A stretch of DNA of 63,575 nucleotides, filler included, from an uncultured virus (IMG/VR IMGVR_UViG_2049941000_000092) (Duplodnaviria > Heunggongvirae > Uroviricota > Caudoviricetes). It is 5 parts of one record of this genome, joined end to end, with 100 filler letters (N's around TTAATTAATTAA, not from the genome) between each part and the next. Parts side by side here need not be neighbours in the genome. Positions count along the whole stretch, not along the records: positions 3,723 to 23,812 come from IMGVR_UViG_2049941000_000092; positions 23,913 to 41,403 come from IMGVR_UViG_2049941000_000092; positions 41,504 to 60,246 come from IMGVR_UViG_2049941000_000092; positions 60,347 to 63,575 come from IMGVR_UViG_2049941000_000092; 1 more part is not named here. One strand, given 5' to 3'. The translations under genes were made by a program, and so were the position numbers. The stretch's first letter is position 1. Each line of letters starts with the position of its first letter. Shown here one piece after another: positions 9,591 to 63,575 of this stretch. Under the pieces are notes generated by a model. That model was not told the DNA's origin. It worked only from the letters and a program-made list of their open reading frames with translations, and ran no database searches.

Positions 9591-10251
9591 CTGGTATATG
9601 CTAACATTAGAAGGTATATGAATAAGGACACTAAATGCTGCTGACCATCGCTGAACACAGTTGCCACGGCATGTGATTGTTCTGTCCCCACGATTAGGAC
9701 GAGTATTAAGAGATTACATAAAGAGGGTTTGATTGAGATCATTAAGAGGAAAGGCCAGTCAGACATGTATCGTTTCAAGGAATTGCTCAAGAATTTCGAA
9801 CGGTTTACTCCGGAATTCCTTGATAATAAGAAGATAACTCCCGANNNNNNNNNNNNNNNNNNNNNNNNNNNNNNNNNNNNNNNNNNNNNNAAGGCCTATT
9901 TAATAGGCCTGCACTCGCAATCTTTTAAAAGCGAGGATTACGCAGTTACCACATACTCCAATCAGGAGATTGCAAACAATCTGAACATCCCGTTAAGAAC
10001 CGTTCAGAACTATAATAAGTCTCTGCAGGAGAAGGAGATTATGACTGAGATAGCCACTTCCTTGACGGATGACGCTGGTTTCAACATTCCTGCCAAGGCG
10101 GTTGATATGCATAAGATTGGACAGGCCATTCTTTACATTAATAAAAGGGTTGATAATCATGAGGACAGAATCACCAATCTGGAACGCATGTTGGAAATGG
10201 CTCTTCGGGAGAATAAGAACTTAAAGAAGGAGAATGAATTATTGAAGGTTA
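9591..10251 (+). CDS. winged-helix/HTH (HTH_36-like) DNA-binding protein, partial, code 4
   Basis: LVYANIRRYMNKDTKCC[TGA=W]PSLNTVATACDCSVPTIRTSIKRL; second HTH YSNQEIANNLNIPLRTVQNYNKSL; C-terminal coiled coil. Confidence 0.75.
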
Positions 10252-10287
10252 NNNNNNNNNNNNNNNNNNNNNNNNNNNNNNAATTAT

Positions 10288-10319
10288 TTTGTTTTTGTCA
10301 ATTTTTTTCACTATATTTG
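10288..10319 (+). promoter_or_regulatory. Bacteroidota sigma-A promoter (-33/-7)
   Basis: TTTG-N20-TATATTTG upstream of 10342. Confidence 0.75.
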
Positions 10320-10341
10320 CGCGAACTATAAATACCTTGAT

Positions 10342-13300
10342 ATGAACTATAAAACTGACAACAAGATAATAAAACTGCAACGGGCGGGCAAGGTACCCGA
10401 AGTGGAGCCTGTCCAAACGCAGAGAGACAATACATCAGTCAAGATTTTCCCTATCGATACTGGCCAGAGACGTATAAAATTCAAGAATGATAAACAATCG
10501 GAGGAGATATTGCACGAGATACTTGCCGAAGCAGCCTCCAAATCCGATGGTCGTGCCAGTGGAAAATTCAATAAAGATTTACCGCTCCAGACGGAACATC
10601 CAGAACTGGCGGTATTATTTGCTCCCGAATTCACGACATATGGTGCGTTAGGCGGCGCTGCCAGGATTGCTGGTGGCTTGGCCGCCAGTAATGTTGCGTC
10701 CAATGCTCTGGGTAAAGCCGGAGATTGAGTAGATAGTAAGCTTGCCAGTAATTTTGTCGGTCCGACGATGCGTATCGCCGGAGGACTTGGTGGTTATGTA
10801 CTAGGCTCTGGTGCTGTAAATCCCCTGTTAAGATCTGCCGCCGGAAATGGTATTACAATGGGAATACCAAAAGAAACGTTTTCCGATTTGAGAGGGCAGT
10901 ACTTTAATAAAGTGTATAATAAGGCTCCGAAACCCGCTGACAATAAGTACATTGACCGTACAATAGATCATCTGTTCATGGAAAATCCTGAACTTAGAAA
11001 GATTGGATCGAAACAGATGTATAGACAGTATTATGATACTGTTTTTCCTGCGTCTAAGGTACAGATACCATATGCACATGGTACGAATTCCGATTTGTCG
11101 GAAGGTTTGTCCAAATCAACAAAACAAATAAACACAGGTGCTCCGGAAACACTAGGACGTAACGATATGTATTTCAATCTACAGCCAGAAACGTCGCTGC
11201 AATATGTTGACGGAATCGGAATTCCTTTTGGACATTGGAATAAACGAGTGTATTGACCGCTGAAAGAAATCCTTGGTAAACCATATACATCGGACGCCTG
11301 GAAAACTCAACCAATTACTTCTGCGACATTGCGGGAAAAGATTCCGAACAGAGCTGGAAAGTTCACAAGAGATACTGGCGGGACCAACGGCAAATGGTTA
11401 TCCGAATATAAGGCTGAATTTGGAGCTGGAGATAAATCAAATGCAGATTTCTTGAAACAGCTTGGTGTACGGGAAGGGGAAACATTCAATGACTTTGTCA
11501 ACAGGAACAGGAAGATATTCTCTGATATATACAATTCCGGAAAATATAACGGATTGTATCATGTAAAAGTAGATGCTTCTAAACCTCTTAAAATCAATGG
11601 TGGGAACACGTATTATTCCGAAAGAGGTATATGAGATTTAATGAAAAAGAAGGGAGCTGATGTACTGTTACACAATAACGCCGATAATGAATTTGGTTCG
11701 GATGTACTGGTTGTTCCCGATGTAAATCCAGAGCGAATCCAAATCCTGGGAAGTAAACCCGATGTGGAAAAGTTCAAAGATTTCGTTGGGGGACATTTTC
11801 AGTATAATGAGCCGGGCATCNNNNNNNNNNNNNNNNNNNNNNNNNNNNNNNNNNNNNNNNNNNNNNNNNNNNNNNNNNNNNNNNNNNNNNNNNNNNNNNN
11901 NNNNNNNNNNNNNNNNNNNNNNNNNNNNNNNNNNNNNNNNNNNNNNNNNNNNNNNNNNNNNNNNNNNNNNNNNNNNNNNNNNNNNNNNNNNNNNNNNNNN
12001 NNNNNNNNNNNNNNNNNNNNNNNNNNNNNNNNNNNNNNNNNNNNNNNNNNNNNNNNNNNNNNNNNNNNNNNNNNNNNNNNNNNNNNNNNNNNNNNNNNNN
12101 NNNNNNNNNNNNNNNNNNNNNNNNNNNNNNNNNNNAAATATTTCGGACTCCGAATTTAATGATTTGATTGACATAACATATAACACGTTCCCTAATAAGA
12201 CGTTCGATGCTGCAGGATTAAATAGTAAAATAATTGGATTTTATGATAAGAACGCGGCTACGGGTAAAGACTATGTTGCCATTAAGGGCTCTGAAAATCC
12301 AGAAGATGTTATTCCGCATGAACTGAGACATCTTGTAGATCAACATTTACCATTAACTGNNNNNNNNNNGAGAAAATAGTGGAATCGATTGAGAACGCAA
12401 GTGGATATGGAAAGAGATTTGTAGAATCTTTAAGAAACAAGAATTTGTTAACTCCCGAAAGAATAAAATCGTTTAGAGAAGCTATGAAATATGTTGGTGC
12501 CGCAGCTCCTATAGGACTAGGTACAGCTACGATTTCTAAGGAAAAGCGAGGCGGAATCCTAAAAGGACAGGAAGGCCTTTCCGTTAGAAAACAGAACATG
12601 ATTAAAGAAGGTGAGGATTGGCTAACTCATTGATTGATTAACAGAAAGGGTTTGCTCGANNNNNNNNNNNNNNNNNNNNNNNNNNNNNNNNNNNNNNNNN
12701 NNNNNNNNNNNATCTAAATACTCATCTCACGACGGAAACGGATCCTACGGGTTATGTATATAGTACCTATTATCCCAGTTTAAACGAGGAATTGTCCAGA
12801 CAACTATCCCAATTATACAGAACAAGCTATAAAGATACTGGATATAGTTCATTCAGATCCGGTTCTACTGGAAATGTAAGACATGTTGAATCGGAGGATC
12901 AATTGAATTGATGGTCTGGTTTATCCTATATCGCTCCAAACGGCAGAACAGACATACAACGCCCTCCTAGATATAGAGACAATCCTGAAATTAAAATATA
13001 TAAAGGTAACTGACATCCGGGCACTATCCTTCACGAACAAAGTCACGCTCTCGGTGGTGCGCCACAGGAAGTGCAGATACGTGACTTTATGAAAAATGGA
13101 GACTATCTGTCGAAGAATGCTTTCCCAACGGACCGTGCCGATTATTGGGATCATCCCACCGAAATTTATTCGAGGAGAAATGAGATATTAAAACAATTCG
13201 GAAAATCTCCGCAATATAAGTATTCTAAGGACGACCTTGATGTAATGCGAAGAACTGTTAAAGATAAAGATAGTCTGAAAGTAATGTTTTTGGACAGATA

Positions 13301-13415
13301 TACGGATGATTTTCTATTACATCTATTTAATGATGTGGCCTCTAATTTTAGTAGGACGGTTACACCCGATATGATCAGAAATGGCGGTAGATTTAAGAAC
13401 CCATTACATAAATAA
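10342..13415 (+). CDS. large polyvalent-type protein (ART-like plus zincin HExxH domains); gapped, may be more than one gene; code 4
   Basis: 10342..11820 is continuous if TGA=W (10726, 11254, 11632); YAHGT..MYFN..QILGSKPDVEKFKDFV; HELRH (~12316); HEQSH..EIYSR (~13031). Confidence 0.7.
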
Positions 13416-13418
13416 AAC

Positions 13419-13452
13419 AAAAAATCCCGGGCATTGCTGCTCGGGATTTTTT
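13419..13452. terminator. bidirectional intrinsic terminator
   Basis: AAAAATCCCGGGCA-TTGC-TGCTCGGGATTTTTT between convergent genes. Confidence 0.85.
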
Positions 13453-13453
13453 A

Positions 13454-15691
13454 TTATCTATAGTCGGCTTTGTGCGCCCATATTCATCTCACGAAATCTT
13501 GCATTCCTTTCGGCAACTTTGAAAGATCTTCTCCGGGTTCGTACATAGTTAACGCCCAGTGTGTAGATGGGGCACTGAATCATGTATATCCCAGTCTTCT
13601 TTGTAAGTCTGTAGCCATACCATCATACCTAACCGGATCCGCACCGGTTTTTAATCCTTCAATCTGTTCTAATCTATGAACATCTTCAAGAGACGGACGT
13701 TCCGCATTCTGGTCTACAAAATCGAAATGCATTTGCTGAATTTTATCAGACACATCTGTTTCAGCCTTATGTAATTTATAGTATTCTTCATCCGGAAGCC
13801 AATCGTGTTCGGCAAGATATTTATCAGCAACACCATTCTTCGCGTTATATTCTCTAAGCAACGCTTCCAGTTCCTCCGAGAACTTCGAATCTACACCGTG
13901 CTGTGTGTAATAATCGTGTACCGCTCTATCTCCAGTAAAGACTTTTGCGCCCTTCGTACTGAAACGCAAACCATTATAGTTCGGGAAGAACGTATCCATT
14001 GGTTCCAGATTTATCGGTGCGGCAACTTTTCGAAGATTCCCATACGGGAATAAGAGGGTGGTGGATGCTGAATCTCAACTACCGCCGCTGTTTCCAGTTA
14101 CAGGTTCGTTTATGGTAAAGTGAACCGAAGCAAGACGTTTCGATACTTCTGGTGATTCGAGAGCGAAACTGTCGCCTTCAATCGGCAAGTATGAATTCGA
14201 CCTATTGATTAACGATATCGGAATGTGATGTCTTGGTGCCGGTTGATTTCTCTCACCTCTAGGTGTTCCGGCTAATTCAGCATCGCTTATCGGTCTGCTC
14301 ATTACTTTCGCCCGCGGATCTCAGTGATATGTTGTCGCCGCTTCTTGTGGTGTAGGTTCGAATTCCTTGGGAACCACATACTTCATCCAACCAAACGTTT
14401 TGGTTAGTGGATTGTATTGCATCTGTACGGTATTTAGCTTCGGATCTGCTAAGTCCACTGCACCTGTCAATCGAGTTGGATAGTCTGAATTGACGTTTCC
14501 GATTGCTGATTTGGACGGGACCACATCGTTTATTCGAGTGGTAATTTCACCTTTCGACCAGAACGGATTGTTTCTCTGCCATCATAGAAAATCTTGATCG
14601 ACACGGCGTAACGGATCCGGACGAGGCTTCATTACAGTACCATCCATATTTGGCGGGCCTATGTGTACTAAGGTAGGATCTTTTCCTTCGGTTTTGAACT
14701 TACCGAGATAGTATCTGATATTGCTGTTTCTTGGATATTCCAGATATTCGGTACCATCGACTGTTCTGTGCATAACGCCTTGTATTACAGGTCTGCCGTA
14801 ACTATAACCTTGTCCATCAGGAGCGGCATAGAACGTCTTACGTAACGACTTGTTTATAGGCTTCGATGTATCGTAGAAGTCAATATATCCTGTTTCTGGA
14901 GTACTGCTCGGAGCTATTTGTAAATCCTTGAGTATCTCTGGATCACCAAGTTGAATTCTATCACCTAATCACCGACTTGCAGAAGCTTTAGCTTCATCCA
15001 TTGTTATCGGTTCCGATAAATCGACTGACGGTTTGTTTTTGAACGCGTTCTCATAAACATCATAGTTGGAATAGTTCTCCCAGCCCTTGTTAGGAGTCTG
15101 GATTTTTGCCCTTCCTGCAGTATTATTAAGATATTGTGTCCTTAAGTTATTGAATTCCATATTGCTGGCGGGAAGATTGACTCCCTTTCCGGCAGCTCAC
15201 TGCAAACTTTTCTTTGCTCCAGAAGCACCAAGTATTACTCCGGACAACGTTCCTAGTTTCTGGAAATCCAGGAACGGATTGGATGTTCCCAATTTATTAT
15301 CTACTCATTTTCCAGCCTGATTCAGTCCTTCCGCACCTACAGCACCACCGACAAGTTCTCCAGCGGTAGTCAGATATTTCTTTGCCTTCAGGCCTTTTAG
15401 GAGTCAGTTTCCACCGGCAAGCATAAGACCTTTGTCGGCAGCTCATTTAAGTGTGTTTAATGCACGTACGGCTTCCTGTCCTTTGGCAGTGTCCTGTGCT
15501 CATCATGTCAGAGCGTTTCGTTTCTTACCATCGCCTTGGGTAATATAGCCCAAAGAGTCCGTGAAGGCTGCCTCTCTTTCTCTTTGGGCCTGTGTTTCCC
15601 ATGCACGACGTATCGAATCTTCAGGATTGGGCATTGTTGTTCACGCATTTTGCAATTTTACGACACCGCCGTCCTTAAACTTGTATTTCAT
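13454..15691 (-). CDS. 745-aa hypothetical protein with 13 in-frame TGA, code 4
   Basis: Gap-free frame with no TAA/TAG joining five track ORFs; MKYKFKDGGVVKLQNA[W]...; HFTINEPVTGNSGGS[W]D motif. Confidence 0.85.
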
Positions 15692-15692
15692 G

Positions 15693-16970
15693 TTATTTTA
15701 CAATTAAACTACCAGGATTCTCACCACCATATAATATACCAAGTCCGCTGAACACATTGGATGGTGTACCAGAAATCTTTTCTGGAACGAATGTTGCAAT
15801 TCTCGGAGCATAGTCATTGGGATAGAATTTCAGGCTTTCTCTTGTAAGGGCTTGCTGATCGACGGTATTTCCGACAGGAGCGTGCCCGCTTATGCTAAAT
15901 ATACCAGTTCCGGGTTGATATGGTCCGACAACACCTGTAGGATTAGGCATCTGCCATCTGTTGAACGATTGCTGTTCGTAGATATGTTTTTCCGGAGTAG
16001 GAACGCGCACAGGCGATTCGACTGGTGGCGGTACGAAGACCGGAGACATAACAGGACGGAATGGTACGGGATTGACCGGTACGGCAGGAATATTCTTATC
16101 CGGCGCAATCCATCTGGTCGCATTTCCAGAAGACTGGTTACCAAACGTACCTTTAGCGCTAGCGTTCGGTTGGTATCCGCCAACATGTCCTGCACGAACT
16201 GTGCCAGTTTTACCAACACCTTTTCCACCAGATGTATACACAGTACCGAAAGTTTGATTACCGGGCTGCATTTGTACCTGTCTTTGCATACCAGTGGTAC
16301 GTAAGGCATTCTGCATCATTCCGCGTCCATTCTGAGCCACATACCGTATCCAGTTCGGAAGATTTCTTAATGCAGCACCACCAGCGAGTCCTGTACCAGC
16401 GTCAATCATTATAGATTTTCCAGGGTTCTCCTGCGCATATCGTGTACCCATTACAGGTGTATAATCTAACAAATCTCCAATTCCATATTCATGTCTTCCA
16501 GATGCAGCATCATTTACATATGCCGCGCCTTTTTGCGAAGCAAGAGCGAGACCGTAGCCTATAGGATCTGTCATGGCCAAACCTGTGTTGAGGCCCGCAT
16601 TAAAGATAGTGTGTGCGGCTTTGTCAGTAGTATTTGTAATCATCTTCTGATACACAGCGGTCTTATATACCTTCGGTACCTGATCAAACTTTAACTTACC
16701 TTGTCTTACAGCCAATGCATACTTATTAATCAAATCCTGTCCAGTCTCTCCGAACTCTGTATAGTCCTGAGGTGCCTGTGCAGTAACCATTGACGGTTGC
16801 AATCTGTATGGATCTGATATGTATAACTCTGCGCCAGGATTTATCATTGGCAATTGTTCTCTGGACATAGGGTCGATTCCGTTCCAGTATAACAGGTCAT
16901 TAAGATTGAGGCCGTTATTGTTAGCAATGCTTATCCAGGAATCGCCTTTTCTTACTTTGTATTTTCCCAT
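15693..16970 (-). CDS. LysM-domain protein (425 aa)
   Basis: N-terminal YKVRKGDSWISIANNNGLNLNDLLYWN..INPGAELYI. Confidence 0.85.
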   Translation of the reverse strand: MGKYKVRKGDSWISIANNNGLNLNDLLYWNGIDPMSREQLPMINPGAELYISDPYRLQPSMVTAQAPQDYTEFGETGQDLINKYALAVRQGKLKFDQVPKVYKTAVYQKMITNTTDKAAHTIFNAGLNTGLAMTDPIGYGLALASQKGAAYVNDAASGRHEYGIGDLLDYTPVMGTRYAQENPGKSIMIDAGTGLAGGAALRNLPNWIRYVAQNGRGMMQNALRTTGMQRQVQMQPGNQTFGTVYTSGGKGVGKTGTVRAGHVGGYQPNASAKGTFGNQSSGNATRWIAPDKNIPAVPVNPVPFRPVMSPVFVPPPVESPVRVPTPEKHIYEQQSFNRWQMPNPTGVVGPYQPGTGIFSISGHAPVGNTVDQQALTRESLKFYPNDYAPRIATFVPEKISGTPSNVFSGLGILYGGENPGSLIVK

Positions 16971-17071
16971 TATTTAACATTATTTAATTAATTTAATCCA
17001 GACGCTTATTATAATCCTCTGGAACTCTTCTTTCTTAGTTTATGTCGTTATGATATCCACATAATTTCTTG

Positions 17072-17119
17072 CAAATATAGAAAATATTTTGCATATCTCA
17101 AAATTTTTTTGTATATTCG
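17072..17119. promoter_or_regulatory. overlapping divergent Bacteroidota promoters
   Basis: Minus: TTTG(17102-17099)-N19-TATATTTG(17079-17072); plus: TTTG(17088)-N20-TATATTCG(17112). Confidence 0.7.
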
Positions 17120-17153
17120 CGGCGATATAAAATTTAAATTTAAAACTAATAAC

Positions 17154-17233
17154 ATGAAATATTTTTTAATTGGAATTATTGTCGTTTTGTGCCTGATAAT
17201 CAGCATCATGGCTATCAAGTGGCCCAAAACTAT
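17154..17233 (+). CDS. small membrane peptide, partial
   Basis: MKYFLIGIIVVLCLIISIMAIKWPKT running into a gap. Confidence 0.5.
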
Positions 17234-17285
17234 NNNNNNNNNNGTTTAGAAAATGGAAATGTTAAACTAAAAATTGTAAAGTAAT

Positions 17286-18562
17286 ATGCCGGAATGATTA
17301 AAACGTCTTCTTGGAGAGAAATCACAAGAACAAATCGGTAATGAAGTAGCTAGAGAAATTTTGGACCAAAATAAAGCGGCACAAGCATATGCAGGGAAGC
17401 CACAAGGTGACCCCTTAGTAGATGAACATCCTGGCTATTATCTGGCTTTTGGTGCCGCACAGCCCGGCGGTATACTAACCAAGGCGATGGCTCCCTATGT
17501 ATATAAGAATGTGGTTTCCGGTCTGCAAAATGGAGAAAGTGCGTTAGAAGCATTTGCTCCCGGATTTAAGAAAATTAAAACCTTTGGAGAATTAGGGGAT
17601 TTAAAAAAGCGAATGGAATTTGCGGAAGGCATCAATAAACCTGTCGACGCTTCCAAAAATGTAAGGCAGGGAAAAAGACCCAGAGTTAAAGCGACGACTG
17701 AAGAACCACCAACAGCGGTTAAGACTTTCACACAAGATGTTGTGGTTCCAGAGCATACAGAATTTAAACCGTATTATATAAAAAGCGGAGAACCAGTTAG
17801 TTTATCGGCCAAACAGCAAGCACAGAAAGCAGCGGATGTAAAAACCAACCAGATCTATTTGGCCAGATACCTGCAAAGATTGGCTAATGAACGGGGAATT
17901 AATACTACAGCCAGACAAGATCGGAAGAGCGTCGTGTAGGGAAAGAGTGTAGATCTCNNNNNNNNNNAAATCCTGCCGCATCCGCACCGCCCGCTTTGGG
18001 TCCCGGAATGGTTCCATATAGAACAGGATATACAAGAGGTGTACCTGTAACGATAGTGGATCCTCAAACACATATTTCCAAGACTGTGTATCAAGGTGGT
18101 GAGCAGAAGATGTTTATGGGAGAACCCCTTGTCGACTGAATGGAAGCTGCAGATAAACAGTTTGGTCCGCACTCTACCGTACTACAGTTAGAAAAGCCGT
18201 TGAAAGCTGCAAATAATTACTGGGAGGCTTCTAAAGGTTCCCAGTTAGGCAAATGGACCGCCGGTTCCGCCAATATCCAAATGTTGAGCGAAGGATTGGA
18301 AAATGCGGCAAGTCTGATTAAGAAGGCGGGTGGTGTTCTGTCTGCTAAATCCGGAATTCACATCAAGAAGGAGAACCGTGGTAAATTTACAGATTATTGT
18401 GGTGGAAAAGTCACTTCCGAATGCATTGCTCGTGGTAAGAATTCTTCCAATCCAGCAATACGCAAGAGAGCAACTTTTGCCGCCAATGCAAGAAAATGGA
18501 AACATGAGAATGGTGGAGTCATTATCCCCAATTGAGTATACGAATTAATTAGAAATAAGTAA
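17286..18562 (+). CDS. crAss-type protein with IHIKKENRGKFT..RKRATFAANARKWKH motif; gapped; code 4
   Basis: MPE[W]LKRLLG start; C-terminal motif typical of crAss-like phages; interrupted by adapter and gap at 17918-17967. Confidence 0.7.
17918..17957 (+). other. Illumina TruSeq adapter contamination
   Basis: AGATCGGAAGAGCGTCGTGTAGGGAAAGAGTGTAGATCTC. Confidence 0.98.
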
Positions 18563-18563
18563 A

Positions 18564-20061
18564 ATGTGAGACGAACTTGATTACACAAAAATAAATCCTA
18601 AAGCTACCAAGGTATTCGAATACATAAATTCGGAATTACAAAAAGCTGGATATGGTGTATATCAAAGGGCCGCGATCTTAGGAAACATACAACGTGAATC
18701 TAGTGGAAATCCACTCGCTATCAGTTCAAACGGATTATGGCACGGCCTAATTCAATGAGATTCGGATAGATATAGGATTGGAAGCAATGATAGAAACGCC
18801 GAACTCAAAAGACAAACAGCGGTATTATTGAACGAACTGGAAAAGAAGGGCTGGAGCGGTCGTACTTGGCGGGACCAAGTTGCGAATTCAGACGCTTTCA
18901 AACAGGCTGANNNNNNNNNNNNNNNNNNNNNNNNNNNNNNNNNNNNNNNNNNNNNNNNNNNNNNNNNNNNNNNNNNNNNNNNNNNNNNNNNNNNNNNNNN
19001 NNNNNNNNNNNNNNNNNNNNNNNNNNNNNNNNNNNNNNNNNNNNNNNNNNNNNNNNNNNNNNNNNNNNNNNNNNNNNNNNNNNNNNNNNNNNNNNNNNNN
19101 NNNNNNNNNNNNNNNNNNNNNNNNNNNNNNNNNNNNNNNNNNNNNNNNNNNNNNNNNNNNNNNNNNNNNNNNNNNNNNNNNNNNNNNNNNNNNNNNNNNN
19201 NNNNNNNNNNNNNNNNNNNNNNNNNNNNNNNNNNNNNNNNNNNNNNNNNNNNNNNNNNNNNAAGAGCTGTAGAAATCTTTACTCGTAGGTTCGCACGTCC
19301 GGCGAACGTGGACTCTGAAATTCAGAAGCGTTTGGAATATGCCAAGTTGGGAATGGTTCCAATCCCAGAAGATCCGGAATATGATACGAAAGCTGCTATA
19401 AGGGAACTTCCTCCGGAATTGATCGATGCTTGAAGACAAGATCCTGAAAAAAATCATCTGCCGAGTGGATATACGGACGAAAAAGGAGACTGGCATNNNN
19501 NNNNNNAAAGGATTTTATGCAAATGGAGGAAGTTTAGTTTATAACATGTTTGATGCAAGTACATCACCATCAACGGAACTTCCCGATGAAACTCCACCGT
19601 TGGTATTTGAAAAGATGGATTCTTTTCCTGTCGAATCCGTATCAGCGTGGGATGTTGACGATTTTAGTAGAAATTGACATTATACAGTTCCTGAACAAAA
19701 AGATAGAGGCGCTGTTGAACTTAAACAGCAAAACATGGACTTAGGTAATATGAAGGAACTTATCGATCTTATGGCCGAAGAAGGAATTTCGTTCAGAATC
19801 ACTTCTGTGTCTAGACCTGGTGCGAGAACAAGTACCGGTAAGGTTTCTCACCATGCGCACGGTAATGCAATGGATATCACGCCATTGGCAGGACAGTCAT
19901 GGGATGAACTGCTTTCCAAGATATATGGTAGTCCAAGAGTATGTGCTTATCTGAGGGAACATAGATGAGGCATACTCGATGAAAGAAGTAAAGAGATGCA
20001 AAGACGAACTGGAGCTACGGGTGCTCATTTGCACATTGGCCCAGACGGCAAAACGATTTAA
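18564..20061 (+). CDS. virion peptidoglycan hydrolase: phage tail lysozyme plus M15-like peptidase; gapped; code 4
   Basis: AAILGNIQRESSGNP..GLIQ[TGA=W]..FTRRFARP; then ITSVSR..SHHAHGNAMDI..HLHIG. Confidence 0.8.
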
Positions 20062-20073
20062 TAAGAACTATAT

Positions 20074-21125
20074 ATGGAATTTAAAAAGAAAACAATCATC
20101 TGGGAAGATAATAACGAACCACCGAAAAATTACATCTGGGTAAAATCGGATGGTAAGATGTATGAGTATAGTTATATAGAAAAGGCCTGAGTTGAATCTG
20201 GAGCTGTATCAGGTAATACTAATAACGAAGAAAATAGTGGCGAAGGAAATAACGACAATGAAGGCGCGGAAGGTAAGGAAGTAGGTATCGATTACGATTT
20301 CCTAATGGAAGCCAAGAGACTTATAGAAAACTCTTTCAATCATACATTTACTTCGGACGATGTTTATCCGGTTGACCAAACTAGTTACGAACCGGGGGAA
20401 GAAAATGTTGTTACTTTAGGAGATAAAGACACCGCTGAATATATGACCTGAGCTTACGATGCAGATACAAACACACCATATATTATATATCTTAAGAATA
20501 AAGAATTAATTCTGCTCTCACAAATGATAGGTCCGTACGACACTTCTGTTGGTTGAGTTGACTTGGGACTACCATCAGGTAATTTATGGGCAGATATGAA
20601 TGTTGGTGCGAAGGTTTCTACAGCCAGTGGCCCATTTTTCTATTTTGGTATATGCAACCCTATAAACGAGTATTCTACAACTGGAGCAAATGCATTATGG
20701 CCAAATCCAGATGTGCTATACGCGGAGATGTTTGGGGCTCCACAAAAGNNNNNNNNNNTTTCGAAGAACTGATTAGTGGAACGATACAAACCGTTGAAAC
20801 AATAGACAACGTGGAGGGTATATTATTTACATCCAAAGTTAATTCAAATTCCATCTTCATACCATTATTAGGATATTATGAACCAACTGGAGCAACTGGC
20901 GACGAATTTAGAAGCAATGGTACAAGACTTCATACGGCTACAGAAGATGGACAATATGTATATTATGTACAGCTTAGAGTTGAACAAGGTGAACCTGAGA
21001 TTGGTATAAATTTAGGATATACAAATGGCGCATGTACTGTTAGACCATGTAAACATACTTCTTCGGTTGTTTGGCCATGAACCATAAGTGCTGCAGACGA
21101 CCCCACCCCGATAAAATCTATGTAA
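20074..21125 (+). CDS. putative adhesin/tail-associated protein with VDLGLPSG domain, code 4
   Basis: G[W]VDLGLPSGNLWADMNVGA..SIFIP..G..VRPC, a Bacteroidota motif. Confidence 0.75.
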
Positions 21126-21143
21126 TAAGACTTTAATTATATT

Positions 21144-22327: not shown

Positions 22328-22334
22328 AAACAAT

Positions 22335-22361
22335 AAACCCCGACCATTTGGCCGGGGTTTT
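22335..22361. terminator. intrinsic terminator between convergent genes
   Basis: AAACCCCGACC-ATTT-GGCCGGGGTTTT. Confidence 0.75.
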
Positions 22362-22366
22362 CTATT

Positions 22367-22906: not shown

Positions 22907-22907
22907 A

Positions 22908-26650: not shown

Positions 26651-26660
26651 NNNNNNNNNN

Positions 26661-50400: not shown

Positions 50401-50987
50401 CTCCTCAGGATTTAATGGGAGATCTGTCAAACAAGGATACGTTTAATCCTATTATCCAGGTGCTTAGAACGTCCAACGAAACTACTCACGGACTAAACGA
50501 TAAACTTTCTTATCTGCTTACTAACTTTAGCGATAAGCGCGGTAATATCTTCAATTCGACAAATACAGCCGTTACTATCGGAAGTACAACGTTTGACGCA
50601 CAATCAACAAACACTTCCGCTAATGGACGACCTCTGGTTCGTGCGGAAATTGTTGATGCTGTTACAGCTCCTACGTATGTAATGTGTCAGGCAACAGGAT
50701 TTAAGAATCTGTCTAACTCCGATACTTCTGCAGATACAGATTACTGCCAGTGACTACGTAATCTTGTTCCGCTGGGTGGTTCTGCACAGTGGTATCCATT
50801 CTATACTCGCTTTAGAATAACGCCTACTCGCATCTATGTAAATATGGAACGCGTTGGCGGACTTTATACGCCGAGTTCCAAAGCAGACTTCTGAAATATT
50901 AGTAGAGATATGCCAAATGGTCATGATGCAAAGATGAGTAATGTATATCGTTATCATTGGGCAAGTTGTGAAATTCCATTAGATTAA
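47421..50987 (+). CDS. 1188-aa protein with purple-acid-phosphatase-like metallophosphoesterase, code 4
   Basis: Gap-free with 3 TGA; THKVMIAGLTAGTYSFKVG (FN3-like), TDQQG, NTGDIT, GNNDL, HEMPF, GGHKHT. Confidence 0.85.
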
Positions 50988-50991
50988 TTAT

Positions 50992-53900: not shown

Positions 53901-54803
53901 TTAATAAGTTTAGAAACATAAGTGGCGACGTTCTTGGTGACAGTAGTTCTGCTCCAATGCTATTAGGTGCTCCTGTAGAATCCACGGATGTCATTGATAT
54001 GAACGCGGAGTCTTGGGAAGGTGCCGACTCTTTGAACTGCGACACCAAGCCTATTGATTACGAACCTACTTCCGAAATGGAACAAGAAATGCCGGTTAGA
54101 CCAACTGGATATTTCTGATCTAGTCTTGAAGGACATATCCGACACTTCTGGAATAATAAATATCCTGGTGGTGCACCAATTGCTGGTTTCCAGGAACTAT
54201 TCCGAGAACTTGTGTTACACCCGTACGCTAAGGGCAATCTAAACCTCAACATCGGTACCTCGTTCAAGGAATATGACTGGAGTGCCGCTCGCGGCTTCTT
54301 CATTCCAGATGGTGCCGAGCCTAAACAGATGGGCCGTGTTGGCGACGGTGGTGCGCAATCTATTAAGTTCAATATCAAGAACGCAAGATTCTATTATATT
54401 GTTTGCTTGCTCGCAGGACTTGTTGATAACCTCGGTAAGAACCTTAATATGCGAACATGGCGTAGAGGATTAGGAAGTTACGTATCTAAATGATTTACTT
54501 CCTTCTACGATATGGATACAGCGTTCGGTATCGATAACGCCGGTTATGAGACTGTCAAACCCGATGTATTTGACGAAACATTGTATAACATCGACGATGT
54601 TCTTGTGAACGGATTTGTAGCCGGAGATGAAACGTCTGATAATATATATACTGTTAAGGATGCTAAATTATGAGGTATCCTCGATTCTACAGAATTCAAA
54701 CGTCAGTATGATGACTTATCTGGTGACTCCTCCTATAATTCCTTATATGCCCAAATGTGGAACGAAATTCGTGAGAAATTAATTCCGAGCGTCGACTCGT
54801 TTA
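50992..54803 (+). CDS. giant virion-type protein, N-terminal half with CotH-kinase-like domain, gapped, code 4
   Basis: IQGTTT..IKNIDI, YTLKADVVDSAHANN, GIYSFNLGR, GLVDNLGKN, [W]FTSFYDMDTAFGIDNAG. Confidence 0.75.
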
Positions 54804-54843
54804 NNNNNNNNNNGTTTAACTCTACTAAAAGGACTAATGTTGT

Positions 54844-55980
54844 ATGAATATTTCTAACGAATTTACAGGGAGTTATGATTCCCTACTCGATGATCCGGTG
54901 GATAACACTGGACAAGAAACAGTAGACTTTAACGCGGCACCAATTGAGCCGCTTCTTCCAGATCAGCCTAGTGATAAAGAGCCTGAACAGGAAGAACCAA
55001 CTGAAAAAGTCGAAGAGACTCCAAGTGAGCCGACAGAACCAGTTAATGCGGAACCTACAAATCCGGAACCTTCTGTCATGGAAAGTTTATTAATGTCTCT
55101 TGGAATCAAAGATCCCACAAAGCTCCAGTTCGAGAATGAGGCTGGAGAGATAGAAGAGCAAGATTTTAACGCTTTGTCGAAAGAGGAACAGCTAAGTGTT
55201 ATTCAGGAACTAACTAATAATCAGTACACTGATTATGAGAAGCAGGTTATCGATATTCTTCGTAAGAATAATACTACGCTCGAAAATCTAATTGCTGCCT
55301 ATCAGCAAAAGGCAATTGAAGCATATCTTGCTGAAAATCCAGAAGCTGTACATCAGAAGTCATATAAAATTGACGATTATTCTGATGACGAATTATATAT
55401 GGCCGATTTATTCGCAAAATTCCCAGATTTTACTGAGGACGAAGTTCGCAGTAAACTTGAATCGGCAAAAACTAATGAGGAACTTTTCAAGAAAGAGGTA
55501 GATGCTCTCCGAGTATACTATAAAGGCGAAGAAGATCGTCAGGCAGAAGCTGCCCAACAGGCAGAACGAATGCAGTATGAAGCGCTTCAGAATTCACTTT
55601 TAGATGCAGTAAATAGGTTTTCTGAGGTTGTTTTAGATACAGACGATCCAGAGAGCGACGCTCTTGAAATTGAGGAGGGAGATAAGGCGGCAATTATGAA
55701 TTACCTTCTTGCTCCAGATAAGGACGGTAGGAGTCAATTTGATAAAGATTTGTCAGATCCTGCAGCTTTAATTGAGTTAGCTTGGCTTCGTACGAACGGA
55801 CGTAGTGTTATCACGGGTATTTCACAATACTGAAAGAAAGCACTTGCAGAAACTCGTAAAGAATTGGCTACGACAAAAAAAGCGTTGGAGAAGTACGCAA
55901 AAAAGAACGACACCGTTGTTGTTAATAAACCCAAATCAGATTTAAACCCTAATCCTAATATATTTGATATGTGGAAATAA
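54844..55980 (+). CDS. acidic scaffold-like protein (crAss capsid-module gene), probably displaced, code 4
   Basis: Acidic Pro/Glu N-terminus, GIKDPTKLQFE, IDDYSDDELY, ISQY[W]KKAL. Confidence 0.7.
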
Positions 55981-56021
55981 TGATTTGGTAACATCTACTA
56001 ATTAATTTTATNNNNNNNNNN

Positions 56022-59000
56022 AAGGAGACGCCACTAAGCCATATTCGCTGAAATCAATTAATCTGAGTAACACTAAGTCACCTAATGTAACATCATTCCC
56101 GTTGAGTTTAACCGCCGTTTCGGATATGATTTATGCGAACCCGTTCGAAAACCTAACGGATATCGATATTACTAACTCTTGTGTTACGAGCGTCAGTCTT
56201 CCGGACGGAGTTTCTCTGTTTACACTGAATGTTGCAGGATCTGCGGTCCGTAACGTAGAACTTAGAGGACAGTCTATTATTGATAATGTTGACTTTACAG
56301 GATGTAGTGCTTTGAACACGTTGGTGCTTAATCAGTGCTCTGTATATCGTAAACTGTCATTAATGAATATGGCATCACTGCAAAATGTCACCGTCAGTGA
56401 ATGTCCTGCGTTAACGGAAATTGAAATCGACTGTAATAAATCTAAGAATAATTTAATTCTGAACGTTTCCGATACTCCGAATCTGACATCCGTGAAGATT
56501 AACGGTTGTTATGGTACGAGCGCACAGATTTCGCTGGCTGGTGCTACACAACTGGAAGAACTTGATTTAAGTGATTGCTACTTCGGTACGGTATATCTTC
56601 CTATTGAGTGTAGAGACACACTGAGAGTGCTTAATTTAAGTGCCTCCAGAATAAAATCTATCACATGGATCACTCCTTCTGGAAGTATAATCACAGACAC
56701 TCTTAATTTAAAGGGTTGCACAGCTCTTGAAAGTTTGAGTTTAGGTTCCAACGTTAGTGTCGAATATGTGCAGTTTGATAATATTGAGGACGAACCTATT
56801 ATTATAAATTCTTCCTTCAGTGGATGTACATCATTAAAACGTGTTTATGGTAATGTTCGAATCAATTGCTCTTCTGCATTTAGCGGATGTTCGCAGTTCT
56901 CGATATTGGGCAGTCCATTGAGCGAAGCTACATTTAATGGAGAGTCTGCAATGGATGGAGACTATATTAAGCACTTTACGGACGATGTTAGTTCCAACGA
57001 AGCAATTCATTTCGAAGCTTACGTGCCCGGTGACGAAGTAACGAACATGACGTTCCAGAATACAACTGCCACAAGTTCCTTTGAGTCTACAAGTTGCACG
57101 AACTTCGACGTTTACTACATTCTCTGNNNNNNNNNNTGGTTTGGCTGATATGTTCAGACATTGTAAGAACGTTGAGTTTACTTGTACCGAAACGGTAGAT
57201 AATTCGCCACATTGAACGATGTTTAACAAGTGCGGAAGAGTTACTACGGTTAATTCCATGTTCTATTCTACTGGAAGCAATAACTTCAGAATATTTACCA
57301 TGTGCTCGTCACACCAAGGACTATTTAGTCCGCTGGCAAGCTGTAAGAATTATGGTACAATATTCTATAGTTCAAGATATATTAGTGATAGACGTGCGTT
57401 TGAAGGACTGAATGGTAGTAATCTTCCAGCAACCACAATTGCATATTTCTCTCCGGTATTGATTGTAGCAAATGTCAACACTTTGGATACAGCAAGCACT
57501 TATGCAAGACTTACTACACCTTCGGATTATTTATTTGGTTCGGGTAATATATCAAATTTCTTCAGGTATATTCCTGGTCTAACTGGAACGATGGATTCTT
57601 TGTTTTATAATACTGCGATAATTGATTACGATACGTTCAGTAAGATTCCCGCGACTGTTACTACCGTGAGAGGTTGCTTTATCAGTACTAATGGAAAGGG
57701 AACCCTTAATGTTCAAAACTTGTTCGAGAATAAGTCTAAGGTTATAAATATATATCATAGCTTTAGAGTATCGAGTTCAAGCAATTCGACAGTAACCATG
57801 CCGATTGACGATCAAACATTCTTCGGATTCAGCAATCTAACAAGAGTTGGATATATTGCTTCTGGTTCCAATGTCGGTTCTGCTACGAATACGGCATTTA
57901 GCGGAAGTGGTATCGTAAAAGTCATCCAGGGTAATGCGTTCCCGTACGATATTATTCGTAATAGTGGTGCTGCAAGAAAACTTGTGATGTTTACGGGATT
58001 CTTTAAGAACGCTTCGTTCGAAAATCCAGTTGGAACGGTTGAGTTACCAGGAACATTGTTCACGGGCTGTTCGAGTCTTGAAAATGTAGAGCACTGTTTC
58101 TACAATTTCAACAATCCTTATCAGTTGACTTCCGACGGTTTTGTTGGAACGAAGCTGAAACAGGCGAGATACTGTTTTGCTTCGGATAACAGCCAACTTA
58201 TCGGCGAGATTCCCAGACGTCTGTTCAATCTTGGTTTTACTACATCTACTCGCACATTACGTGGTACAACCGAGACCTCAAGAACAAAGACGGTTACGTT
58301 TGATAGTCAGAGCGTTATAGGAAACTATCTCGTGCTTACTTCTGCTGCTGGTACGGAAGTTGTTGATGGAGAGACGGTAAATGTTCAATACCGCGATTCC
58401 TACACTTACTGTTCTTTGGAAGACGATGTACTTACATACACGCCGTTGTCCGAAATAACAAGAGAGGTGCAGTATTGGCAGAATAATGATTGGGTAACAG
58501 TTTCCAGTACAACAGAATATGTTGACGACACATGAACCGTCACATCTGTAAGCTACGACATTAGTCTGCCTAAGAACACGATTACCGACTTAACAGGATG
58601 CTTCGCCGGAGTTAACTGTGATCCATATGTATGTCTCGAACCTACTGTGGAAAACAATCCAACCTATTGTCCATATGAATACCTTGTCAGTGGCGGTGTA
58701 TGAACCAGAGCTAATAAGGATGAGAACGATAAGACCTATATGTGGGAATTCGATGGTTGTAATTACATCGATGAAACTGGAAATTCATACCTATCGCTCG
58801 ATGAGTTTACCGAAGAAGATGATGTATTTGCAAGTTGGCATCCTCTGTTTGACAGTAACGCAACACCTGTGCTTAACTTCTGCGCTCCTCCAGATCTACT
58901 TAGATGGTGCACTAGTAACGCATCGGTCGCATATATGTTCACGGGCGCTGGTCATGATACAAACGGTACGTTGAGTTACTCGTCACACTTATCCGGTCCT

Positions 59001-59562
59001 TATGGTCTGAAGGGTAGAATTTGTCCATATATGCTTAAACCGGTTCCAAATACAACTTCCATACAGGAAATGTTCGCTTGATGTACGCATCTATATTCAT
59101 ATAATATTAATGGACAGGCATATTTGATTCCTCCATCATTCTTCTCATATGCGCCAAGGGTTACCAACCTGTCATACGCATTCGAAGGTGTTTCCTTCCT
59201 GAAGAATCCGCAGTTATATGAAGTATTTAGCAAACTTACCGGTNNNNNNNNNNCAGATCTTCTATCATGCTTGATTCGCAGAAGGTTCTGCTAATGATAA
59301 GACTCTCGTAACTAATGTGTTCTCACGTAATAATGTCGCCAATGCTTACGGTGCATTTGCACAGTCTAACATGAAGTCGACACCGAATGAAACAAGAGAC
59401 AATGTATCAAGACAATATGTGGCGTTCAACAATGTCTTCGGTAAATCTACCAACAATAATGAATACTATGTATTTGATGGATACAATCCTAATACTGTAA
59501 CGCACGAGTCGCCTCGTACTGTATCGACGGCAACTTCGCGTCATAACTATCGTACATTCTAA
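56022..59562 (+). CDS. leucine-rich-repeat C-terminal half of the giant protein (likely continues 50992..54803), code 4
   Basis: LxxLxLxxCxxL and FxGCxxL repeats; pieces joined by TGA or short gaps. Confidence 0.75.
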
Positions 59563-60205
59563 TGAGTAAATTAAAACTTTGGATAATTGGTATTTTGATT
59601 GCCACATTCATTGGATTGGGTGTGGCAGTCAAAACCCAATCCGATAAAATTCATGAATTGAACACCGAGCTTTTAGTTACTTCCTTCTACGANNNNNNNN
59701 NNNNNNNNNNNNNNNNNNNNNNNNNNNNNNNNNNNNNNNNNNNNNNNNNNNNNNNNNNNNNNNNNNNNNNNNNNNNNNNNNNNNNNNNNNNNNNNNNNNN
59801 NNNNNNNNNNNNNNNNNNNNNNNNNNNNNNNNNAAAAAGCTGAAAATAAAAGATAAGGAAATAACCGAATTGCAGTATATAGCGTCCTTAACGCAGAAGA
59901 AAGATAGTATCTTTGTTCACGATACAATATTTAAAAAAGGTGTTCTGTTAGACACATTGGTTGGGGATGATTGGAGTACGGTTGCGATTCACGCAGAATA
60001 TCCAAACATTCTAAATGTAGATTATGCGTTTAAGAATTCGACAATTGTGGCGTTCCACGATGAGAAGGTCACCGTCGACCCTCCCAAAAAATGCTGATTA
60101 GCCAGGCTATTTCAAAAGAAACAAATTGTTGTAGAGGCGGACGTTATTCAAGAAAATCCATATTGTGTTCAAAAAGAACAGAAATTTATCAAAATAATTA
60201 AGTAA
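59562..60205 (+). CDS. N-terminal TM protein, putative spanin-like, gapped, code 4
   Basis: TM plus coiled coil; KLKIKDKEI..DPPKKC[W]LARLFQKK..NPY. Confidence 0.6.
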
Positions 60206-60209
60206 AAAT

Positions 60210-60240
60210 TTTGATTTCCAATTTTTTATTTGTATATTTG
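60210..60240 (+). promoter_or_regulatory. Bacteroidota sigma-A promoter
   Basis: TTTG-N19-TATATTTG at the contig end. Confidence 0.7.
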
Positions 60241-60348
60241 CAGCGANNNNNNNNNNNNNNNNNNNNNNNNNNNNNNNNNNNNNNNNNNNNTTAATTAATT
60301 AANNNNNNNNNNNNNNNNNNNNNNNNNNNNNNNNNNNNNNNNNNNNTT

Positions 60349-63300
60349 TTTGCAGCACAATTAAATGCACCAGAAGATTTTACATTATTAGATTTTTACG
60401 CGTATGGCCTTACTCCGAGTAACACCGGACTAAAGGATGCGAGTTATTACAAAGGAATTGATAAAGTAGTTGAACGATTTTCTGATGACGAAGGAAATTT
60501 TGATGAGAACGCATTTAATCAATTTTATGATAGTGCTAGAAGGGCATATAACGAATGAGCAAATACCGATTTTGCGGATACTATTGTAAAAAGTATTGCA
60601 AGAAGTCCAGAAGATATCTCCAGAATGGGTGATACAAACATCTGGGATACTAGTACAAAAGTATTCGAAGTAAACGATATGTGGCGACACCAGAGAGGCC
60701 TTGGTAATCTACGTGAAACCGGAAAGGAAAGTTATGATTATCGAGAGGTTGCTCAGGCTAATCGTGTTCACGACGCTGATGATAATGTCTTGGACTATAC
60801 ACCAAACGATAAGGGCGGTTTGTTCAAGGCATTATCAAGAAAGCCGATGTATATTGCTACTGACGAAAACGGTGTTCCGTTGCTAGACCCAGATACGGGA
60901 GATCCGTATTATAAGGAGCTTCGTGATGGAGAGAGTTCTTTTGGCAAAGAGATGCTCCATTACACAGACACCCTTACTGCTGAAGACACCTGGCTAAACA
61001 AATATGATTTCTTTGACAACGATAGTTTGGATAAGAGTGTTGCCGGTACAATTGCAAGAACAGTTACTATGGTCGCTCCATACTTGATTCCATATGTTGG
61101 TCCCGCTCTTGGTGCCATTGGTGCTGTATATGGACTTGCAAGATCACTACCAGTACTTGCTAAAGCTGTAAATGGTATTCTTACACACGATTCGGATAGT
61201 ACCGAATATGGTAAGAGACTTAATAACAGAATTGCGTTCTTCTCGCAATTTGACACGTCTAAGAGTAGACATTCGCTTGAAAATCAGTGGTCCTTTGAAA
61301 ATATCGGTGATATGATTGTTACTTCTGCGAAACAACTGTTTGAGCAGAGAACATTTACAAGAATTCCTGAAATCTTAAAACTTCCTTCAACGAAATTCAA
61401 TACAGGCTTGTTCGGATCCATGAGCCTTGGTTATATGGCATTAACGTCTGCAGAAAGCTCACTAGAAACCTTTAAGAAAGCCGGCATGTCTGATGTATCA
61501 GCAGGTGTTTCTATGCTTGCCTATACTGCTGCAATGTTCGGATTAATGCAGTCCAATTATTTTAAAGGCTGGTTATTCAGAAATACTTGGGTCAACGCAG
61601 CACCTGAAATAACAGACGCTCTTAAGAAACAGTCTGATATTGTAGCAGATGGAATTGCGCAGAGTGTTAAGGCTAGTAAGAAAGGACAGCATTTACTGAA
61701 ATTGGCTCCTACCGCAACGGAGAAAGAAGCTCAGAACCTATTTAAACGCGTATTCAATGCTACCAAACAGGCATGAACGGAAAAGAGTTTCGCTCCTATT
61801 AAGGCGTTAGATCTTGCAATACCCGGAAGCGTTGGCGCGATAAAGAATGTTGGTGGTGTATATGTACATCATGCATTAAACGAAGGTATTGAGGAAGTAA
61901 TGGAAGAGCAGGCTCTTGATGTCATCAAACTCGTTTCTCTCGGACTTGAACATCTTGGATATAAGATTTCTGACGATACTCATGATCAGCTTGAATTCGG
62001 ACTTACGTGGAACGACGCAATGCAACGATATGCAACGGCGTTTGTTGGTGGCGCTGTTGGTGGCGCTGTATTCCAAGGATTGGACGATTGGCATAGCAAA
62101 GTACTCAATAGTAATATTTCTAAATATACTGGCACAGGTGTCGATGGTGCACTTATCAGAGCAATTCAATTATATGGTGAAGATCGTACTATAGGTGAAT
62201 TAAATCGTCTATATAAGCGTGGTCTTGCTAATACAAATCTGTCCATGGATGGAAAATGAGTAAAAGATGCAACAGATCCATCCAAGGAAGTTTGGACGTG
62301 AGATGAGAAGGGAGACAAACCTAGCCAGAACGACGTTGTGTATAACGCCCTTAAGGTTAAGATCAAAGCTCTTGCGGAAATAATGAAAAAGAATCAGTTA
62401 CTTCTTACAGATGAAGAAGTTTTACGTAAGGTTCTTTCTCCCGAACAGTTTAAACAATTCGAAAATAGTGGCAATCCTATCATGGACCAACTCCGTAAGG
62501 AAGTTAAAGAGGGTGCCAAAAAAGAAGGAATTACTGAACAGGAATACCGTAAAAAGCATAAAATCAACAACTTTGAGGAATTTGCCAAACGCACTGGTTT
62601 TGCAAATATCATTCTTACCGATTTTGGTAATCTCGCACTCGATATCGTTGAGTTAGAACAAGAAATTGAAGGCCGCAAAGGATTCTTAACGGCTCAGTTC
62701 CCAGACACACGTTCTGCAGAACGAAACGAAGCCATTAACAAAGATCCGTTCATCAAAGACCTAGAGGAAAAAAAGAAACAGAAACAAGAACAGTTAGAAG
62801 CACTATTTAGTGGTAAAGCGGCATCTTATTACATAAGATATGCTCACTACGCTTCACATTCTGGTCTCGTTAGTTCGATGATTTCCGCTCAGGGCCCTAA
62901 CGTTCTCAGCAAAGATTCCTTTGCATTCTTAAGACATCGTACCACCTATAGTGATGCTGATGAAAACGAAAAGAAAATCATTGATAAAGAATACGAGAAC
63001 TATATTAAGTCCACAGGAATCGATGCTCTTCAACGCTCTAACGAACTATTCCAATATGCACAGGACTTGTTTACTCCTGTGTTACAACAGCAACTTGGCG
63101 ATATAACCGGTGTCAATCTTACATCTGATGTATATGGTCAAACGCTCGAACATCCTGAAAACGTAGATCCGTCTACTTTACTCGATCGTGCTACACGTAT
63201 CAACGTAAAGGCACTGGATGCCGAAAATCCGGATCTCGACGAACTATTCCAAAGTCTACACGGACAAATTGATATTATTATTAATTCTGGTATAGACGAG

Positions 63301-63575
63301 CTTGGCAACGCGTTAACGATCGGGCAACGTTATCATAAGTTACTCGACTTCGCAATAAATCAGTATAAGGCCATGAAAGAGCAGAACATCGTTGGTTTAG
63401 GTGCTGACGATTTTATCAAATATGCTTTTAAGGCCATCAGTCAAGATTTATCAAGACGCATTAATGCCGTTCCTGTTAATACGGAGGATTTTATCAAACA
63501 GACCCCTGTAATTCATGAATACGATTTGATGAAAAACGAATCGAATAATGAGGTGATTATCAAATTGTTTGAAAA
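60349..63575 (+). CDS. giant crAss virion cargo/ejection-type protein, partial at both ends, code 4
   Basis: Single open frame over 1070 codons with TGA at 60556, 61774, 62257 and 62299; EGIEEVMEE and FVGGAVGG motifs with hydrophobic helices. Confidence 0.75.

Follow-up and report, generated by a model that had tools for sequence, protein, structure and literature searches.

TGA as a probable tryptophan codon in most genes of a large crAss-like phage from bovine-gut metagenomes

What does TGA mean in a stretch of DNA whose long reading frames are crossed by TGA and end in TAA or TAG? The question is raised by 63,575 bases of an uncultured virus (IMG/VR IMGVR_UViG_2049941000_000092), a stretch referred to here in its entirety as the window (37% GC; 4,488 N spread over 63 runs), for which a sequence-only reading had proposed the reassignment of TGA to tryptophan across the late genes. 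The analysis makes it very probable that the window belongs to a crAss-like phage with a genome of about 177 kb, from bovine-gut metagenomes, in which UGA is read as tryptophan in most genes. The amino acid proposed is thus supported, but ‘late genes’ proves too narrow a term, since replication genes (DNA polymerase, two helicases and a primase, as well as the window gene at 9471-10328) also use TGA. Part of the evidence comes from a near-identical virus record of 177,170 bp, called G001 below, which is rated complete, has 98% of the window's sampled words and encodes a large terminase (TerL) 100% identical to that of the window.

In-frame TGA codons are found in genes of recognizable families, assigned from PHROGs (TerL phrog_6681, portal phrog_6547) and Pfam (Phage_lysozyme2, Peptidase_M15_3, BACON). 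The block that contains them, and the genes on which the argument mainly relies, are the following.

9343..63575, plus strand with a few minus-strand genes inside: recoded block, with in-frame TGA and with TAA or TAG at the ends
18564..18908, plus strand: phage tail lysozyme domain, TGA at 18756 (PF18013, E 2.7e-10)
21153..22324, plus strand: repeat-bearing protein with an internal PKQIL control
23201..23617, minus strand: Peptidase_M15_3 endolysin, TGA at 23479 and 23323 (PF08291, E 7e-23; phrog_894)
28993..31097, plus strand: large terminase, in two frames owing to an N run, TGA at 29269, 29523, 29652, 29760, 30441 and 31020 (phrog_6681)
31367..32860, plus strand: portal protein, TGA at 32126 and 32189 (phrog_6547; PDB 7QOG portal gp20, E 1.8e-8)
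40450..41403, plus strand: BACON-repeat protein, TGA at 40921 (PF13004, two stretches)

All five TGA sites quoted in the sequence-only reading are present in their contexts. Three of them are KARGTG[TGA]SE in TerL (29523), HGLIQ[TGA]DSD in the tail lysozyme (18756), for which the family label was likewise verified, and GLRAA[TGA]GSP in the minus-strand endolysin (23479). The other two belong to internal controls, in which a gene carries both forms of the same motif. In the repeat-bearing protein, NNPKQIL[TGA]IDLNS at 21168 has its counterpart PKQILWGDLNS at 21317, in the N-free piece that follows, and in the BACON-repeat protein, SRLE[TGA]TISSDPWIT at 40921 has its counterpart GTWTASSNRAWIT at 40657, with tryptophan in repeat 1 at that position. 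Both controls are as described.

It was also claimed that adjacent same-frame open reading frames (ORFs) are separated by TGA, with true ends in TAA or TAG. The in-frame TGAs and the TAA/TAG ends are borne out, but the N runs are not length- or frame-preserving (for example 29481-29490 and 59693-60346) and, because they alter length and frame, some ORF breaks in the window are masks and not TGAs. TerL illustrates both cases: its frame changes across the 10 N at 29481-29490, the gene being a single continuous ORF in relatives, and the frame at 29493-31097 runs for 535 codons with five TGA and no TAA or TAG, against dozens of TAA/TAG in the other two frames. Coding density, expressed as a greedy non-overlapping ORF cover computed over 9591-63575, is highest with TGA as sense, as anticipated.

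Code 11 (table 11): cover 0.703, 59 ORFs, mean 206 aa
TGA as sense: cover 0.877, 49 ORFs, mean 317 aa
Control, TAG as sense: cover 0.755, 65 ORFs, mean 205 aa
Control, TAA as sense: cover 0.827, 70 ORFs, mean 211 aa

The cover reached with TAA as sense is achieved only via wrong-strand ORFs, the plus-strand share dropping to 0.67. Beyond 9.3 kb, the N-free segments delimited by TAA/TAG hold 115 TGA and 179 TGG, a few short minus-strand segments being possibly spurious; segments of the whole window end in TAA (32) or TAG (7), and none of the supported genes terminates in TGA. Profile matches extend across the TGAs in TerL and, in G001, in the DNA polymerase.

Which amino acid is inserted can be approached through homologous columns. 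TerL was aligned, with X at each TGA, to 103 homologues of at least 690 aa out of 120 listed (58-86% identical), which gave the following residues.

Column 29523: W 46, L 45, F 8, A 3, one gap
Column 29652: W 102, F 1
Column 29760: W 100, F 2, S 1
Column 30441: W 38, Y 29, L 26, F 9, M 1
Column 31020: W 103

Tryptophan is the commonest residue at all five columns and occupies 100-103 of the 103 cells at three of them. The site next to the Walker A motif (29523), presented earlier as a family-conserved tryptophan, does not deserve that description, the column being W/L/F. Among 78 homologues of the M15 endolysin, tryptophan is found in 75 at 23479, and W (46) and Y (20) prevail at 23323; the tryptophan claimed for the LRAA[TGA]GSP motif accordingly holds among homologues but not in 1LBU, the only solved M15 relative matched, which has Met at that column. 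The DNA of relatives gives the same picture. All 80 relatives examined (IMG/VR loci, 53-81% identical) have in-frame TGA in TerL, from 2 to 10 each, and TGA and TGG alternate between genomes at the conserved columns. At portal position 32189, 68 relatives have TGA (58), TGG (9) or F (1). The proposed alignment of TerL homologues at TGA columns shows Trp or an aromatic residue prevailing. For a broader view, the codons of 28 window segments with matches in the relatives' loci were tabulated in greedily chosen frames (off-frame segments contaminate a six-frame version).

Window TGA, 872 cells: TGA 47.5%, TGG 16.7%, F 8.3%, L 7.3%, Y 6.7%
Window TGG, 1458 cells: TGA 46%, TGG 26%, Y 11%, F 5%
Four Gly codons: G in 65-88%
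TGT: C in 66%

The column profiles of TGA and TGG in the relatives are almost alike. More distant comparisons were made with MT835470.1, an unclassified 117-kb gut phage record that is the best GenBank phage match of the window TerL (44.6%) and serves as a standard-code outgroup: over 540 codons its TerL contains neither TGA nor TAG, and it shows W (TGG), F, Y, F, P and L at six TGA columns and W, Y, W, Y, T, Y, Y and Y at eight TGG columns. The TerLs of four Suoliviridae have F or Y at three of five TGA columns. As a separate observation, the annotated TerLs of the Suoliviridae cr113_1, cr4_1 and cr124_1 contain 6 to 8 in-frame TAG, which is the known TAG-to-Gln recoding of other crAss families.

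Variation between strains leads in the same direction. TerL variants were called from contigs of four runs belonging to four independent studies, none of these runs being flagged as a candidate origin of the window's DNA, and 37 of the 38 variant places are at third codon positions. One variant (29654 A>G, three runs) turns TGA into TGG and another (31037 G>A, two runs) turns TGG into TGA; 35 of the remaining 36 are silent, the other one being Ser>Leu. Silent variants thus number 37/38 under code 4 and 35/38 under code 11; under the latter, the two exchanges would be a stop-to-Trp and a Trp-to-stop change in a gene where hardly any other non-silent change is tolerated. TGA and TGG act as evolutionary synonyms.

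The phage also possesses a candidate decoder. G001 has 17 tRNAs, one of which, at 145708-145778, bears the anticodon UCA, measures 72 nt, has an ordinary cloverleaf size and shows, by eye, a G at the discriminator position; no tRNA-Trp(CCA) is among the 17. Relatives of G001 are 167-177 kb long with 20-25 tRNAs each, and at least two of them, G004 and G006, also carry UCA tRNAs. The G004 record contains, in addition, a 94-nt tRNA (L109 1874-1967, minus strand) with two tandem anticodon-type hairpins, UCA and CCA, the UCA arm being identical to that of the G001 suppressor tRNA. No tRNA was found near TerL in 80 TerL loci (up to 10 kb on each side, less on short contigs). The position of tRNA(UCA) coincides with the onset of TGA use, as seen from ATG-trimmed plus-strand ORFs of at least 100 codons in G001.

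Upstream of tRNA(UCA), 123,300-145,707: 16 ORFs, 0 TGA, 44 TGG
Downstream of tRNA(UCA): 36 ORFs, 53 TGA, 92 TGG

The difference is significant (Fisher p = 6e-8), and one or more TGA occur in 21 of the 36 downstream ORFs. The TGA-bearing genes include those for DNA polymerase (3 TGA; its PHROG profile is matched over the full length), an SNF2-type helicase (6), a DnaB-like helicase (2), primase (5), NrdD and DNA ligase. Downstream genes for GroEL, polynucleotide kinase, thymidylate synthase and an exonuclease are free of TGA. A GIY-YIG homing endonuclease (G001 175741-176367; L138 12442-13068) is peculiar in that all seven of its tryptophans are TGA and none is TGG, at codons 2, 27, 52, 79, 104, 129 and 157, about 25 apart.

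Three features of the window bear on this boundary.

93..9207, minus strand: early block, tightly packed ORFs avoiding TGA as sense and as stop (code-11 ORFs; family support for three only)
2079..2153, minus strand: tRNA-Met (CAT), the window's only tRNA and the start of the phage tRNA array (ARAGORN), presumably the tRNA-Met at G001 120949-121022
9471..10328, plus strand: replication-initiator-like helix-turn-helix gene, the first plus-strand gene with in-frame TGA (one) (phrog_391 and phrog_270, E ~1e-11)

In the early block, TAA or TAG terminates 15 of the 16 code-11 ORFs, which contain about 41 TGG; TGA terminates only one, a 72-aa ORF at 4082-4300 that lacks support. One protein of phrog_11908/phrog_200 type (‘lipoprotein’) is encoded at 437-1678 (minus strand) as three ORFs, split by N at 846-855 and 1278-1287; by eye, its product resembles an SPFH/band-7 protein. 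TGA-rich rival frames in this region (235-759 with 11 TGA, 8430-9224 with 7 TGA; both from the greedy TAA/TAG choice) were considered and rejected: they match no family, and the code-11 frames are either supported by PHROGs or tightly packed. In G001 the early block continues through the tRNA array up to tRNA(UCA).

Several observations weigh against the assignment of TGA to tryptophan. The residue inserted is inferred from alignments only, and the column cells (103 homologues, 80 relatives and the codon table) are related sequences and not independent events. Database TerL homologues may themselves be code-4 translations, and the DNA of relatives was therefore examined. Relatives have non-aromatic residues at some TGA columns (V/R at 33378, R at 33410, T/G at 48546). 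The tRNA(UCA) gene lies outside the window and is seen in the near-identical G001; among 67 unique phage tRNAs its nearest neighbours are those for Gly, Ser and Glu, at 0.68-0.71 identity, and it is not clearly Trp-like, while its fold is no better than that of shuffled sequences (z -1.4). Most early-block ORFs are without family support, the three phrog_11908 pieces excepted. An RF-1 domain (release factor 1, RF1) was found in 0/5 genomes (G001-G005; control positive in 10 of 14 named genomes), as was a class-Ib synthetase (TrpRS/TyrRS family; control positive in 14 of 14). Finally, in 24 segments of at least 100 codons with a true end, 8 of 53 TGA lie within 20 codons of the TAA/TAG end and could be real stops.

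The last two points also bear on the competing explanation that survives best, a dual or leaky decoding in which host tRNA-Trp(CCA) would read through TGA without a phage tRNA, or in which TGA would still be a stop at some gene ends. Its appeal lies in these near-end TGAs, in the RF1 and TrpRS not found in the phage, and in the report that suppressor tRNAs occur in only 35% of TGA-recoded phages, as given in a preprint (10.1101/2021.08.26.457843). However, tRNA(UCA) exists and is placed where TGA use begins, and genes with 13 to 18 TGA would be beyond a low-efficiency readthrough. The TGAs at 22217, 22271 and 22307 of the repeat-bearing protein, the last two of which are near its end, are each TGG in the single matching relative, and the 53 TGA are spread evenly over the gene quarters (15, 12, 9 and 17). 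Dual or leaky decoding is consequently considered unlikely.

Reading TGA as tryptophan has next to be set against a meaning of glycine, known as code 25 from Gracilibacteria, Absconditabacteria and their phages, or of some other non-aromatic residue, for instance cysteine. Codes 4 and 25 are indistinguishable by ORF length alone, and G does occur in a few relatives' columns (2/6 at 48546; 2/10 at 33410). Glycine at the TGA columns, a possibility that the sequence-only reading had itself named, is nevertheless not what was found: it is outside the six commonest residues there, although the alignments do recover glycine at Gly codons and cysteine at TGT at the rates tabulated above. The W or aromatic character of the TerL and M15 columns, together with the TGA/TGG swaps amid otherwise almost wholly silent variants, speaks further against it. 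On these alignments neither glycine (code 25) nor cysteine is supported at TGA sites, and this explanation is given very little credence.

Equally little credence goes to the view that the TGAs are real stops in broken or split genes, or assembly or consensus errors. It would account for the many short adjacent ORFs that code 11 yields in the region, and the 63 N runs do interrupt the window. On the other hand, G001 is an independent record with an identical TerL, every one of the 80 relatives keeps in-frame TGA at conserved columns, and the third-position bias of TerL variants implies purifying selection across the TGAs, which the profile matches of TerL and DNA polymerase also traverse. Consensus error in particular, raised from the outset as a possible source of the TGAs, is excluded, since TGA/TGG swaps occur both ways in independent strains and four studies keep or swap the two codons.

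Least credible of all is a selenocysteine tRNA with TGA as Sec: the ARAGORN output ‘tRNA-SeC (tca)’ suggests it, but that label follows the anticodon alone, the molecule has 72 nt and no long variable arm, and the more than 100 sites per window (115 counted) fall in all kinds of proteins and at Trp columns; no search for SECIS elements or SelB was part of this comparison.

If TGA is tryptophan, a sequence of events can be proposed. The TGA-free early genes and the tRNA array would be expressed after infection in the standard code of the host. Because no RF1 or TrpRS was found in the phage, we infer that host TrpRS would charge tRNA(UCA) with tryptophan and that the charged tRNA would compete with host release factor 2 (RF2) at UGA. 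Full-length products of the TGA-bearing replication, structural and lysis genes would appear only afterwards, so that recoding would act as a timing gate; the phage's own genes end in TAA/TAG only, and suppression would be harmless to them. A stronger version is that the code switch is hard-wired in gene order: tRNA(UCA) would be the last gene of a TGA-free block (examined as window 93-9207 and G001 123.3-145.7 kb, including the other 16 tRNAs), and everything transcribed later would need it, including DNA polymerase, helicases, primase and the divergent structural and lysis genes, replication itself being gated. This version is tentative and, in our estimation, somewhat more likely to fail than to hold; if true, the code change gates genome replication and not the late genes alone. 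The host may be a member of the Bacteroidota, at which the BACON domain and the crAss kinship hint.

How does this phage compare with known systems? Stop recoding with TGA as Trp, which the sequence-only reading took as established for crAss-like phages, is indeed in print (PMC7886860, PMC12386605). Yutin et al. (2021) describe suppressor tRNAs, a Zeta group of 145-192 kb and a Zeta PolB with multiple TGA (PMC7886860). In a paper of 2025 on Zeta phages (‘Lera’ phage), a phage of 180 kb is reported to have TGA in the genes for TerL, RNAP and helicase as well as in structural and lysis genes, and to encode a tRNA-SUP-TCA (PMC12386605). The present phage shares with the Zeta crAss-like phages, as far as these accounts go, a crAss-type TerL and portal, a genome size within their range (177,170 bp for G001), a tRNA array with tRNA-Sup(TCA), and TGA in structural, lysis and helicase genes as well as in TerL; relatives here also have homing endonucleases and a TerL bearing an intein. 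The window portal matches the solved phiCrAss001 portal structure, and the window TerL is 25-28% identical to Crassvirales TerLs (tblastn). The likeness to Zeta is one of shared features. Two differences are apparent: the set of Yutin et al. is human whereas this lineage is from bovine-gut runs, and the best GenBank TerL match is only 44.6%.

The preprint of Borges et al. presents a code-switch and lysis-timing model; according to it, relatives have given up TGA as a stop, two Jade phages carry RF1 and TrpRS, and homing endonucleases are strongly recoded (10.1101/2021.08.26.457843). Elements of that model are found here: recoded structural and lysis genes, a phage suppressor tRNA, standard-code early genes, TGA shed as a stop and a recoded homing endonuclease (7 TGA, 0 TGG). 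In contrast, the replication genes of the phages of Borges et al. mostly keep the standard code, whereas here DNA polymerase, helicases and primase carry TGA, and the RF1/TrpRS operon of the Jade phages has no counterpart found in G001-G005. Ivanova et al. (2014) is a further reference for the code-switch model of stop-codon-recoded phages. In Mycoplasma and Spiroplasma (code 4), UGA is likewise Trp via tRNA(UCA), with TAA and TAG as the sole stops, but there recoding extends to the entire cell, from which RF2 has disappeared; in the present case the reading is imposed by a virus on a host presumably possessing RF2, and a portion of the phage genome avoids TGA. The crAss-like phages with TAG as Gln (code 15) belong to the same order and use the same strategy with another stop codon and another amino acid (PMC9523058).

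TGA-to-Trp recoding in large crAss-like phages, its late-gene bias and the suppressor tRNAs are all already in print, and no new question is opened. The case is one more clean example of a virus imposing another stop-codon reading on its host, here with strain-level TGA/TGG swaps among otherwise silent variants in four studies and with TGA use setting in abruptly at the gene of the suppressor tRNA. In practice, the standard code is unfit for annotating the window, table 11 fragmenting TerL, portal, endolysin and tail genes. Peters et al. (2022) validate code 15 with peptides and, in the text available, mention TGA twice, with TGA as Trp as predicted only (PMC9523058); as far as these sources reach, peptide proof of TGA as Trp in a crAss-like phage is still lacking in print, and the bovine-gut phage would be a suitable subject. 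The TerL stretch is present in at least 20 public runs of 10 studies, mostly labelled bovine gut. Two metatranscriptome runs share only 0.07-0.08 of sampled words with the phage.

Use of TGA is uneven among the remaining genes of the recoded block, three features of which stand out.

13457..15691, minus strand: 745-aa gene with most TGA in the window (13 TGA, 8 TGG), family unknown, no PHROG/Pfam match
34153..40123, plus strand: two large tail-fibre-like genes, nearly all TGG (2 TGA, 43 TGG)
60625..63573, plus strand: N-terminal portion of a giant gene of 3202 codons, cut off by the end of the window; its residues match the beginning of the protein translated from G001 26430-36035 (minus strand; 15 TGA, 20 TGG)

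The LysM gene adjoining the first of these has 0 TGA and 5 TGG, against the 13 TGA and 8 TGG of its neighbour. The TGG preference of the tail-fibre-like genes, the GC content of which is higher (0.43-0.44), could reflect module exchange or a local reversal of recoding; relatives often have TGA at columns of these genes, for example in 7/7 at 36136 and at 36172. Giant ORFs of 1527, 3473 and 3202 codons occur in G001, the first and last of which were scanned and gave no family match, and the window also holds leucine-rich-repeat proteins and several very large family-less genes (PHROGs, Pfam). As for position within genes, the median relative position in eight replication genes of G001 is 0.38 for TGA and 0.51 for TGG (p = 0.049; 20 TGA, 30 TGG), a weak trend, and in 12 complete late genes of the window it is 0.40 and 0.57 (p = 0.20); a 5′ bias of TGA is not claimed.

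No major capsid gene was recognized in the window in PHROGs/Pfam scans. Window positions 31097-60625 (29.5 kb) correspond to 51.6 kb of G001, and because of this difference whole genes must be absent from the window. The TerL gene of one relative (L002 3781-4938) has an insertion of about 1.1 kb inside one open frame, and the TerL homologue P0043 contains the intein homing-endonuclease domains PF05204 and PF05203. Lastly, paired runs of 44 N exactly 12 bases apart are found at 3623-3722, 23813-23912, 41404-41503 and 60247-60346, and look like one repeated element masked four times.

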